In this document: one piece after another, positions 10,240 to 11,452 of the stretch
Numbering within the stretch: position 1 is the stretch's first letter
Layout of the letters: every line of letters begins with the position of its first letter
Position numbers and translations under genes: made by a program
Assembly: GCA_022560785.1 (NCBI GenBank)
Contig: JADFSL010000003.1
Coordinates: forward strand, 6,738 to 30,737
Direction: 5' to 3'
DNA: 24,000 nucleotides
DNA from: Patescibacteria group bacterium
Lineage (GTDB): Bacteria; Patescibacteriota; Minisyncoccia; Phycocordibacterales; JADFSL01
The notes under the pieces: generated by a model
What the model saw: the letters and a program-made list of their open reading frames with translations, nothing else
Database searches by the model: none
Told to the model about the DNA's origin: nothing

Positions 10240-10581
10240 ATGGTTGAATTGAAAAATATAAAGCAAATTTTTAATAGGTGGAATATAAGTAAACTTACAG
10301 GTGGAGCAAATAGGAAAAGAGATTTGTTTAACACTGCGCGTGACTGGAAAATTATTTTCTCTGTGTTTGTTGTTACCGTTTTAATAAGTGCACTCTTTAG
10401 CATATATCTGTTTTTGCAAATCAGTCGAGGGGAAATTTTTATCGTGCATCGTAATAATGTGTCACTCGACACAATTAACCGAACACTCCTCAATGACACA
10501 CTTTCTTTTTTTGAAAATAAAGAGCGGCGCTTTATTGAGATGAGTGAAAACAAACCTAGATTTATTGACCCGTCTCTTTGA
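10240..10581 (+). CDS. Hypothetical single-TM protein co-oriented with pilMNO
   Basis: 113-aa ORF 12 nt after the pilO-like gene. TM WKIIFSVFVVTVLISALFSIYLFL. Confidence 0.45.
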   Translation: MVELKNIKQIFNRWNISKLTGGANRKRDLFNTARDWKIIFSVFVVTVLISALFSIYLFLQISRGEIFIVHRNNVSLDTINRTLLNDTLSFFENKERRFIEMSENKPRFIDPSL

Positions 10582-10607
10582 TGTTGATATTATCCAAGCA
10601 TTAGTAT

Positions 10608-10681
10608 CTCCCCGTGGCTCAATTGGATAGAGCGGCTCCCTTCTAAGGAGCAGGTTGCAGGTTCGAGTCCTGCCGGGGAGA
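10608..10681 (+). tRNA. tRNA-Arg (anticodon UCU), no encoded CCA
   Basis: Acceptor CTCCCCG/CGGGGAG, D-arm GCTC..GAGC, anticodon arm GCTCC-CTTCTAA-GGAGC, T-arm GCAGG-TTCGAGT-CCTGC, discriminator A. Confidence 0.9.
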
Positions 10682-10816
10682 CAAATATGGTTTCCGCCAA
10701 AGGCGGACCCGCCTTTGGTGGGCGATTCCTGCCGTGGGTACAAACAATTGCAGGCCTGCCCTCCAAAATTTTGCAAAGCAAAACTTAGGAGGGTGAAAGT
10801 CCCGCTGGGGGAGACA
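10682..10816 (+). other. Two tandem short elements, each ending in a decayed copy of the tRNA-Arg 3' end
   Basis: tRNA 3' end tcctgccggggagacaa (10668-10684). Copy b is tcctgccgtgggtacaa (10727-10743). Copy d is tcccgctgggggagaca (10800-10816). Hairpins at 10697-10718 and 10759-10793. Confidence 0.5.
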
Positions 10817-11063
10817 GAAGTTTGATGTAAAGAAAGACGGTTTATGGGGAAAGTGGGACGCACAACGTTACGGACAGGACAACCCTATAATTACCGACAA
10901 CACCGGAGGATATTCATTCCTTGCTCCTGAAGGTGATTATTATCTTGAGGTCGTACGAGACGGATACGAATTATTTACCGGAAAAGAATTCAAACTCACC
11001 GAAACAGAAGCGGTCAATGAAATCATAGAGCTCAACTACCTCGGCGAGGACATAGAGTTTTAG
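10797..11063 (+). pseudogene. Start-less C-terminal gene remnant (carboxypeptidase-regulatory / Cna-B-like beta-sandwich fragment)
   Basis: The frame is open only from 10797 to TAG at 11061-11063 and has no in-frame ATG/GTG/TTG. It translates to ..FDVKKDGLWGKWDAQRYGQDNPIITDNTGGYSFLAPEGDYYLEVVRDGYELFTGKEFKLTETEAVNEIIELNYLGEDIEF. Confidence 0.55.
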
Positions 11064-11116
11064 AAGTAAGAAATTTTGCGATATAATACCCACAACTTTT
11101 CAAGTCCGCTCGTAGA

Positions 11117-11148
11117 CACAAAACCACCCGAGGAAAATACCCGGATGG
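11117..11148 (-). terminator. Hairpin plus U-tract downstream of tRNA-Val
   Basis: Minus strand CCATCCG..CGGGTGG stem followed by TTTTGTGT. Confidence 0.5.
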
Positions 11149-11159
11149 TTTTGGTCTAG

Positions 11160-11232
11160 TGGGCGATGAGGGACTTGAACCCCCGACCTTCTCGGTGTAA
11201 ACGAGCTGCTCTACCAACTGAGCTAATCGCCC
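11160..11232 (-). tRNA. tRNA-Val (anticodon UAC), no encoded CCA
   Basis: Acceptor GGGCGAT/ATCGCCC, D-arm GCTC..GAGC, anticodon arm GCTCG-TTTACAC-CGAGA, T-arm GGGGG-TTCAAGT-CCCTC, discriminator A. Confidence 0.9.
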
Positions 11233-11356
11233 CTGTTTGTTTTAAATATACTATATATGTTTTCAAAAATAGCTACCAGCTCGTTCACACCAAGATGTAA
11301 ACGGAGAAACTATACCCCGCACAGTTTCTCCTCCACCAACTGAGCTAATCGCCCCT
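11233..11356 (-). other. Upstream partial tRNA-Val duplication (5' 22 nt) plus inverted anticodon-arm copy
   Basis: accaactgagctaatcgcccct occurs at 11213-11234 and again at 11335-11356. The plus-strand segment 11277-11294 cagctcgttcacaccaag matches the tRNA anticodon arm 16/18 in inverted orientation. Confidence 0.5.
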
Positions 11357-11452
11357 TAAAAAATATTAAGTAACTATAATCCTACGCTATCAGTAGGTAT
11401 TTTTCAATCTTTACGTTTTTTTTTAACATCAATATAATGTGTGAAAAAACCC

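Follow-up and report, generated by a model that had tools for sequence, protein, structure and literature searches.

The known systems closest to the elements described here are the SegB endonuclease of phage T4 and the Ssn nucleases with their hairpin repeats. SegB is a free-standing GIY-YIG homing endonuclease encoded in a transfer RNA (tRNA) gene cluster; according to the abstract of its description, the recognition site includes the conserved T-psi-C stem-loop motif, and the gene spreads by a break in the recipient, after which the donor region is copied (PMC2330249). The Ssn family comprises small, single-strand-specific nucleases of the GIY-YIG type; their oriented hairpin repeats (NTS/SRM) are dispersed in many copies and sometimes flank the nuclease gene. 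The role assigned to these nucleases is to limit transformation, not to rebuild genes, and the word tRNA is absent from the text (PMC11893778). A third precedent is the Islander principle, by which an incoming element restores the target gene that it has split, the displaced fragment marks its far end, and serial events result in arrays of fragments (PMC4383910). Here, we analyse the 135 bases that follow the tRNA-Arg(UCU) gene of a Patescibacteria group bacterium (assembly GCA_022560785.1), within a window of 24,000 nucleotides (nt; contig JADFSL010000003.1, here C3:6738-30737; positions are counted from its first letter) in a 579-kb genome (G000) with 40% G+C, 58 contigs and 38 tRNA genes. 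To the explanation that these bases are the record of two serial replacements of the tRNA tail, made by nuclease cassettes whose genes have since disappeared, we give about an even chance of being right.

As far as the abstract on SegB goes, the likeness lies in a GIY-YIG gene beside tRNA genes and in the T-psi-C stem-loop, which is where the junctions are located here. SegB is, however, a normal-sized phage protein that includes a DNA-binding domain, whereas the genes considered here encode bare catalytic domains of 80-100 residues in cellular genomes; the tRNA-Arg locus, unlike SegB, retains no nuclease gene, and the abstract mentions neither duplicated tRNA stumps nor hairpin plugs (PMC2330249). 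The two hairpins behind tRNA-Arg, termed PAL and SDhp, appear to behave like the oriented hairpin repeats of the Ssn nucleases, a likeness of layout rather than of compared proteins, but the repeat sequences differ. With Islander-type islands the locus shares a regenerated tRNA gene and displaced fragments; unlike these, it contains neither an integrase nor island DNA, there are hairpins inside its fragments, and the filled sites of relatives have a nuclease gene at the integrase's place. A search of the literature found no description of these elements.

In these minimal genomes each tRNA gene is essential and present once, and yet the ends of such genes are repeatedly rewritten. Although the locus itself is a relic, it is of value for joining two families of elements, tying tail-copying elements to hairpin-plugged stumps beside tiny GIY-YIG genes within one genome, and for pointing to testable enzymes, the nucleases being a concrete candidate agent for tail replacement.

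Two degenerate copies of the tRNA-Arg tail

The tRNA-Arg(UCU) gene is intact (10608..10682, plus strand; supported by ARAGORN, by Rfam tRNA with 69 bits and by the sequence) and does not encode CCA. Its T-loop is located at 10662-10668, the 3′ strand of the T-stem at 10669-10673, the 3′ strand of the acceptor stem at 10674-10680 and the discriminator A at 10681. The resident tail (TCCTGCCGGGGAGACAA, 10668-10684) recurs twice downstream on the same strand, and the positions and letters that the initial annotation had given for the tail and both copies were all correct when checked against the sequence. The core of copy 1 (TCCTGCCGTGGGTACAA, 10727-10743) has three mismatches to the resident tail; extended to 10723..10744 (CGATTCCTGCCGTGGGTACAAA), the inner stump, it agrees with the tail at 18 of 22 positions, begins at C56 of the T-loop and has T59, like the tRNA-Arg of most relatives. 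Copy 2, first placed at 10800-10816, aligns as 10798..10816 (AGTCCCGCTGGGGGAGACA) with two mismatches and one inserted G, and forms the right part of an outer stump. Both copies start in the T-loop, at C56 and A58, and, as had been claimed, run through the discriminator and the CA behind it. The presence of two degenerate tail copies accompanied by hairpins is real.

When set against dinucleotide shuffles and random genomic windows (3000 of each), copy 1 has a P of ~3e-4 and copy 2 of ~1-2e-3, and no control of either kind contained both; the repeats therefore exceed the shuffled controls against which the initial annotation had proposed to hold them. In a harsher control, with 36 tRNA tail probes run against 36 downstream regions, the score of tRNA-Arg with its own probe (24) falls within the top 1.1% of the off-diagonal values, and none of the other probes exceeds the own probe in the tRNA-Arg downstream region. 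By hand count, each copy agrees with the resident tail at 14 of 17 positions and the copies with one another at 12 of 17; each being closer to the resident tail than to the other, they are independent copies of the working tail and not a duplicated unit. Apart from the tail copies, the two units have nothing in common. At position 59 of the T-loop the outer stump has G, the inner stump T and the resident tail G, while most relatives have T; to judge from these letters, the succession G/T/G hints at a series that would fit changes in immunity.

The host order consists of ultra-small bacteria, and all relatives searched belong to a different family. At least 12 tRNAs of this genome carry another kind of downstream element, composed of a hairpin, an exact antisense copy of the T-loop and T-stem, a folded core and a sense tail copy; such elements, of types A, B and C, are referred to here as Leu/His-type after two of their tRNAs. 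Of 15 tRNA-Arg(UCU) loci, those of relatives and the present one, ten are without any tail copy, and their spacers to tRNA-Val can measure as little as 1-111 nt. The remaining loci have a full element of type A in the relative G017 and of type C in a metagenome relative, an antisense arm and core together with a cut tail copy in G006, one short unit lacking the arm in G029, and two units in the present genome. Loci with no, one or two units, the range that the initial annotation had envisaged, are thus all found.

Two further assemblies (L025, L029) are identical to the window in this region. In a third, of 3.4x coverage (L026), 9 of 11 differences fall within the 64 nt of 10666-10729 and include the conserved T-loop base A58, and two are spread over the other 1470 nt; they are probably sequencing errors, of a sequence-specific kind at the hairpins, the alternative being real strain variation. 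Short-read contigs of other samples (L028, L030, L031) end at 10665 and start at 11160. When metagenomes were scanned with UppS, no relative above 57% identity turned up.

Hairpin repeats and tiny GIY-YIG genes

Both units contain a hairpin that folds in the way initially described (12 bp at 10694-10721 in unit 1; CCCTCC/GGAGGG at 10759-10793 in unit 2), and both hairpins are dispersed repeats. PAL (10691..10722, without strand; TTTCCGCCAAAGGCGGACCCGCCTTTGGTGGG) is a twin-hairpin mini-palindrome recognised as inverted repeat I8, by its fold and by its copies in the genome; on the right it borders directly on C56 of tail copy 1. Its pattern, TTTCCGCC-NNN-GGCGGA-[TC]CCGCC-NNN-GGCGG, is present in 28 of 401 genomes of the order and in none of them when reversed as a control; most copies are intergenic or in-frame within open reading frames (ORFs). 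In this genome PAL is also located behind tRNA-Leu(CAA), where it is followed by a tRNA-Val-like tail that it abuts at C56, and in G001 and G189 its right end abuts the anticodon-loop end of tRNA-Ser stumps, only the right end being informative. PAL adjoins a GIY-YIG gene at 2 of 28 sampled PAL loci, and a PAL-like hairpin adjoins one in G023.

The locus behind tRNA-Leu(CAA) (C47:27800-27952, minus strand, L022) has further features: the Val-like tail that follows PAL ends in CCA, though the resident tRNA-Val gene encodes none, and 72 nt past it the T-arm and tail of Leu recur, shortened by a deletion of 4 nt. At another locus (L077, G016:C11, 1501-1528) PAL is in-frame in an ORF for a TrmD-like protein and adds 11 residues (SAQGGSALGGK) between conserved blocks. 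Rickettsia palindromic elements are small palindromic repeats that insert in-frame into genes. PAL resembles these and the REP/RAYT repeats in being a palindrome of 30-36 nt scattered over many genomes and, in the TrmD-like protein, in-frame; it is, however, much shorter than the Rickettsia elements, and, unlike in REP/RAYT systems, neither PAL nor SDhp flanks the one gene for a Y1 transposase that this genome has. This single Y1 (IS200/RAYT-like) ORF (C49:745-1455, minus strand) is flanked and interrupted in-frame by hairpins of its own (GGACATCCGATGTCC, seven in the genome), which differ from PAL and SDhp, and the transposase was rejected as their mover. Y1 genes are present in 27 of 41 relatives, in up to 13 copies, and across these 41 genomes their association with type-A elements is weak (14/16 versus 13/25).

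SDhp (10755..10797, plus strand; CCTGCCCTCC...GGAGGGTGAA) is an oriented hairpin with an anti-Shine-Dalgarno arm (CTTGCCCTCC) and a Shine-Dalgarno arm (TTAGGAGGGTGAA), and it occupies the place expected for the T-loop bases TTCG of the outer stump. The GTGAAAG in front of copy 2, which had been likened to the GTGAA/GTGAG of the Leu and His loci, belongs instead to the conserved 3′ end of SDhp, the 3′ arm of which (AAAACTTAGGAGGGTGAA) recurs exactly at eight other places. SDhp is dispersed in this genome only, in at least nine short-form copies and further long-form ones; five of the nine short-form copies are located within tRNA fragments, in one orientation throughout. Behind tRNA-Ile(GAU) (C54:7909-8075, L023) the flanks of SDhp join into a 42-nt tRNA copy that extends from the anticodon loop to the 3′ end, with 35 of 42 columns identical; SDhp is inserted after TTC of the T-loop, and this stump ends 7 nt before tRNA-Leu(CAG). 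All three tRNA-Gly genes have an upstream copy of their own 5′ part with SDhp in its D-loop (positions 1-23, 1-28 and 1-33; C50:6940-7028, C50:11990-12089 and C11:11670-11762; L016, L024), each copy bears, as judged by eye, the D-loop letters of its own gene, and there is no ORF between copy and gene at these three loci.

At tRNA-Arg, the flanks of SDhp, TTGCAGG and AGTCCCGC..., join collinearly to tRNA positions 47-76. TTGCAGG (10748..10754, plus strand), which equals the 5′ strand of the tRNA T-stem plus 2 nt (10655-10661), is likely the left part of the outer stump, a case that draws on the tRNA-Ile parallel. At the non-tRNA copies of SDhp no target-site duplications were found around the hairpin. 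A longer relative of SDhp, with inner hairpin TTTAGCTTCGCTAAAC and ending in AAAAACTTAGGAGGGTGAA, is located at C40:9530-9610, C23:13570-13650, C47:24740-24820, C19:2690-2762 and C40:11950-12030, and in some copies its end is the ribosome-binding site of the next gene.

Besides UvrC, this genome encodes six GIY-YIG ORFs of 82-99 residues (C27:404-673, C18:2080-2328, C23:5431-5685, C6:3282-3566 and C38:1867-2145 on the minus strand, and C19:7032-7331) and a fragment (C18:376-528), with matches to Pfam GIY-YIG, weakly to TIGR01453, and to PDB 1zg2 (UPF0213). The C38 ORF reaches into tRNA-Glu(UUC), in whose 5′ end it terminates, and is preceded by GGCCTCGCCG, then a 66-nt double hairpin and then TCTAGTGGGCTA, that is, by a split 5′ stump of tRNA-Glu; the C27 ORF is located 250 nt behind tRNA-Gln. 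Such tiny genes are present in 31 of 41 relatives, and 8 of 32 sampled copies have a tRNA no more than 400 nt away, in every case on the same strand. Zones of this size cover, by our estimate, ~5% of these genomes. Complete modules are seen in relatives. In G020 a stump of tRNA-Val (positions 1-43), plugged by a half-PAL hairpin (TCCGCCGCGGCGGA), is followed by a GIY-YIG ORF and an intact tRNA-Val; a metagenome contig has a tRNA-Leu stump with a 20-nt palindrome in its D-loop, a GIY-YIG ORF and an intact tRNA-Leu; and in G001 and G189 the order is tRNA-Ser 5′ half, PAL, GIY-YIG ORF and intact tRNA-Ser. A module of the 3′ type, also in G020, consists of tRNA-Ser(GCU), 108 nt, a GIY-YIG ORF, 45 nt and a tail copy that begins at C56 and is identical at 17 of 19 positions. 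In G023, tRNA-Trp is followed by a GIY-YIG ORF and a PAL-like hairpin, and the contig ends before any stump.

Proposed tail replacement and its alternatives

In the proposed tail replacement, cassettes made up of an 80-100-residue GIY-YIG gene and ending in a DNA hairpin would settle in the tRNA genes of the order, each adjoining a stump and bringing, as a replacement end, a copy of whatever part of the tRNA lies past the site of insertion. In a naive genome, the same tRNA gene would be broken in the loop; one broken end would pair with the donor's intact gene and the other with the donor's stump, repair would copy everything between them and regenerate an intact gene, and the recipient's old end would be displaced as a new stump with the cassette hairpin in or at its loop. 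Loop breakage followed by copying repair would explain why stumps bear the letters of the local gene, why the gene is intact and why the junctions are located in conserved loops. At tRNA-Arg the junctions are at C56 and A58, the gene is intact and the sites of ten of the 15 relatives are empty. The outer stump (10748-10754 and 10798-10816, split by SDhp) would be the oldest tail, the inner stump (10723-10744, behind PAL) the next and the present tail the youngest. Deletions would then have removed the nuclease genes with all else that the cassettes contained, and also the 5′ part of a neighbouring gene, leaving only hairpin-plugged stumps in decay. That nuclease cassettes made both stumps, that cutting and repair were the mechanism and that events followed in this order are what we infer from the observations above.

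It is important to point out that several findings weigh against this explanation. There is no nuclease ORF or remnant at the tRNA-Arg locus (no ORF in 10683-10830), so that what would link it to the nucleases, themselves predicted enzymes, is layout and shared hairpins only. Only 7 nt separate tRNA-Arg from PAL, and the loss of a whole cassette body must therefore be assumed, twice; the regenerated tRNA should moreover retain the target, which leaves immunity unexplained. PAL is located away from tRNAs at 25 of 28 sampled loci, at some of them in-frame inside genes, and its copy at tRNA-Arg could be a later, unrelated insertion; its left flank yields just GG(TT), which does not establish a position inside the T-loop. 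The left flank of SDhp, TTGCAGG, adds a P of ~0.05-0.10 by score test. Two of the six nuclease genes are beside a tRNA, and the stump at C27 is a weak one, an 8-mer. Finally, tRNA tails resemble one another: by local score copy 1 ties with the tRNA-Trp tail (its first 12 nt) and copy 2 with that of tRNA-Lys(UUU). Over its full length copy 1 is nearer to tRNA-Arg (18/22 versus 15/22 for tRNA-Trp, counted by hand), and adjacency and full-length identity favour tRNA-Arg as the source.

On a wider reading, the hairpins would be no passengers but the functional ends of selfish elements of a new, minimal class, each a bare GIY-YIG domain with a loop-seeking hairpin, which cut tRNA genes in the D-, anticodon- or T-loop and use the tRNA end that they carry as a homology arm for homing into that tRNA in any genome. 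The antisense-core-tail elements of Patescibacteria, which are far more common, would be gene-less derivatives mobilised in trans, and the tRNA-Arg array a dated record of invasions, with G/T/G at the free T-loop position 59 as a change in immunity. Taken as a whole, we regard this combination as doubtful. Tail replacement by nuclease cassettes, if confirmed, would amount to a very small homing system aimed at conserved tRNA loops, would explain widespread unannotated repeats, and could be a source of compact sequence- or structure-specific nucleases. Stumps and hairpins of this kind cause assembly breaks, false small ORFs and false RNA predictions beside tRNA genes.

Among the alternatives to tail replacement by nuclease cassettes, one would have small elements enter the T-loop of tRNA-Arg by site-specific recombination, each bringing a new tail, with the element DNA deleted and the hairpins acquired later. 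A regenerated gene and its displaced fragment as direct repeats are the classical signature of an integrase (PMC4383910), and this signature is seen here: the identity blocks begin in the T-loop, that of tRNA-Ile begins in the anticodon loop, the tRNA-Ile stump retains its original flank beside tRNA-Leu, and relatives have empty sites. The genome also encodes two tyrosine recombinases, but both are Xer-like proteins of ~300 amino acids on contigs C50 and C41, away from these loci, and no other Phage_integrase matches were found. An integrase was seen in none of the filled loci examined, several of which have a GIY-YIG gene exactly between tRNA and stump; the tRNA-Arg units contain no ORF, just 5-12 nt of non-hairpin DNA are left between the copies, and the hairpins in the loops of stumps are left unexplained. 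Integrase relics are, in our estimation, unlikely.

Local tandem duplication carries the same low probability. Here, slippage would have triplicated the last ~30 bases of the gene with its trailer, and the copies would later have been colonised by hairpin repeats with a preference for DNA that itself forms hairpins, as T-arms do. With both hairpins removed, three head-to-tail copies of a ~30-nt unit indeed remain; the hairpins are dispersed repeats in their own right, and a Y1 (HUH) transposase gene is present in the genome, but the hairpins around that gene are of a different sequence. The tRNA-Ile stump is located 100 nt from its gene with a different downstream flank, which duplication would not lead one to expect; position 59 is T in copy 1 but G in both the resident tail and copy 2; and five SDhp insertions into targets of 20-45 nt would demand an extreme target specificity.

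The initial annotation saw in the two units serial, older events of the same process as at tRNA-Leu and tRNA-His. The serial part holds, in that the units are separate and older copies of the tail; that they are the same kind of element as those at Leu and His does not. The resemblance is one of genome, of tRNA side and of a tail copy reaching from the T-loop past the discriminator to CA, but Leu/His-type elements have an antisense arm and a conserved core where the interior of the tRNA-Arg units consists of two other repeat families, the unrelated palindromes PAL and SDhp. The type-A elements of six tRNAs (Leu, His, two Gln, Met and the tRNA-Arg(UCU) of G017) were combined into a covariance model (R1), which scores 127 bits at Leu and 100 bits at His; even unfiltered and with E values up to 10 admitted, it finds nothing at 10685-10816; neither BLAST nor Rfam found similarity to the core in the units, and the best match to an antisense T-arm in 10685-10830 scores 11, against an average of 11.5 in shuffles (P = 0.6).

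A further view is that the units are two Leu/His-type elements decayed beyond recognition, and it can be said for it that these elements are common behind the tRNAs of this genome, that full ones stand at the tRNA-Arg(UCU) genes of two relatives, that partial forms are known from G006 and from the tRNA-Val of the present locus (arm and start of the core), and that the right end of a cassette resembles those of type C. Since the unit interiors are fully explained by the two other families, and arm and core are missing, we hold the view to be improbable; a process shared with the Leu and His loci is more likely to be tail replacement by small nuclease cassettes than the decay of such an element. 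The cassette end in question (L126, G020:C9, 1720-1790) reads ..AATGTGAGCTGACGCC followed by CGAATCC, and resembles the right end of a type-C core behind tRNA-Val (L007, G023:C9), ..TTTAGTGAGCTGACACC followed by AAGTCC. By this likeness the two kinds may be related, and the antisense-core-tail elements may, as far as the letters suggest, be gene-less derivatives of nuclease cassettes. Three more type-A covariance matches of 43-50 bits are found in this genome (C11:19585-19715, C13:4945-5045 and C15:224-351), one of them ~180 nt downstream of tRNA-Glu(UUC).

Other origins were considered for these elements and rejected. A retro-origin from mature tRNA does not agree with copies that include trailer bases past the discriminator and, at tRNA-Met and tRNA-Asn, whole downstream hairpins; no reverse transcriptase was found in the genome. 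Readings that invoke bridge RNA and IS110, or TnpB guide RNA, were dropped because the genome encodes no IS110 or TnpB protein.

A working RNA, co-transcribed with tRNA-Arg as a trailer in which tail mimics and hairpins serve processing, termination or regulation, is a very improbable account. The trailer region folds better than its shuffles (z = -2.7), no canonical terminator separates it from the tRNA, and it is 100% identical in a second assembly; conservation is, however, seen among near-identical strains only, and ten of 15 relatives are without any copy. The copies, in contrast to the resident tail, have degenerated; in copy 1, the acceptor part has lost its ability to pair with the 5′ end of the tRNA, and the hairpins occur in many unrelated contexts, including the inside of ORFs. 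Chance similarity between the G+C-rich flanks of hairpins and a tRNA tail, for which the general likeness of tRNA tails and the tied local scores would speak, can hardly account for two copies that never occurred jointly in the controls, that are in the same register and whose layout recurs at tRNA-Ile.

Neighbouring features of the locus

Upstream of tRNA-Arg there is a promoter-like site (10565..10593, plus strand; TTGACC-17-TATTAT with TG before the -10 hexamer), and Rfam scans (E up to 1) of the window as well as of 17 loci found tRNAs and noise only. The tRNA gene is separated by a spacer of 476 nt from an intact, convergent tRNA-Val(UAC) (11159..11232, minus strand; ARAGORN and Rfam). 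Within the spacer, an open frame without any start codon (10797..11063, plus strand; identified by Pfam, frame inspection and homologues) encodes the final ~75 residues of a CarboxypepD_reg-type protein; homology starts at ~10827, directly 3′ of copy 2, and in the homologues, of 254-2246 amino acids, this segment is located at the extreme C terminus. The start-less fragment abuts the outer stump, which indicates that the region has been trimmed by deletions. An alternative 72-codon ORF with an ATG at 10845 was rejected as being in the wrong frame, the real frame being that of the start-less gene fragment.

The tRNA-Val side of the spacer (11064..11158, minus strand) contains a terminator-like hairpin (11119-11153) and an antisense T-loop segment (GGACTTGAA, 11099-11107), after which ~25 nt resemble the start of a type-B core; there is no tail copy on this side. 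Upstream of tRNA-Val(UAC), at 11280-11365 on the minus strand, there is a copy of the first ~22 nt of tRNA-Val.

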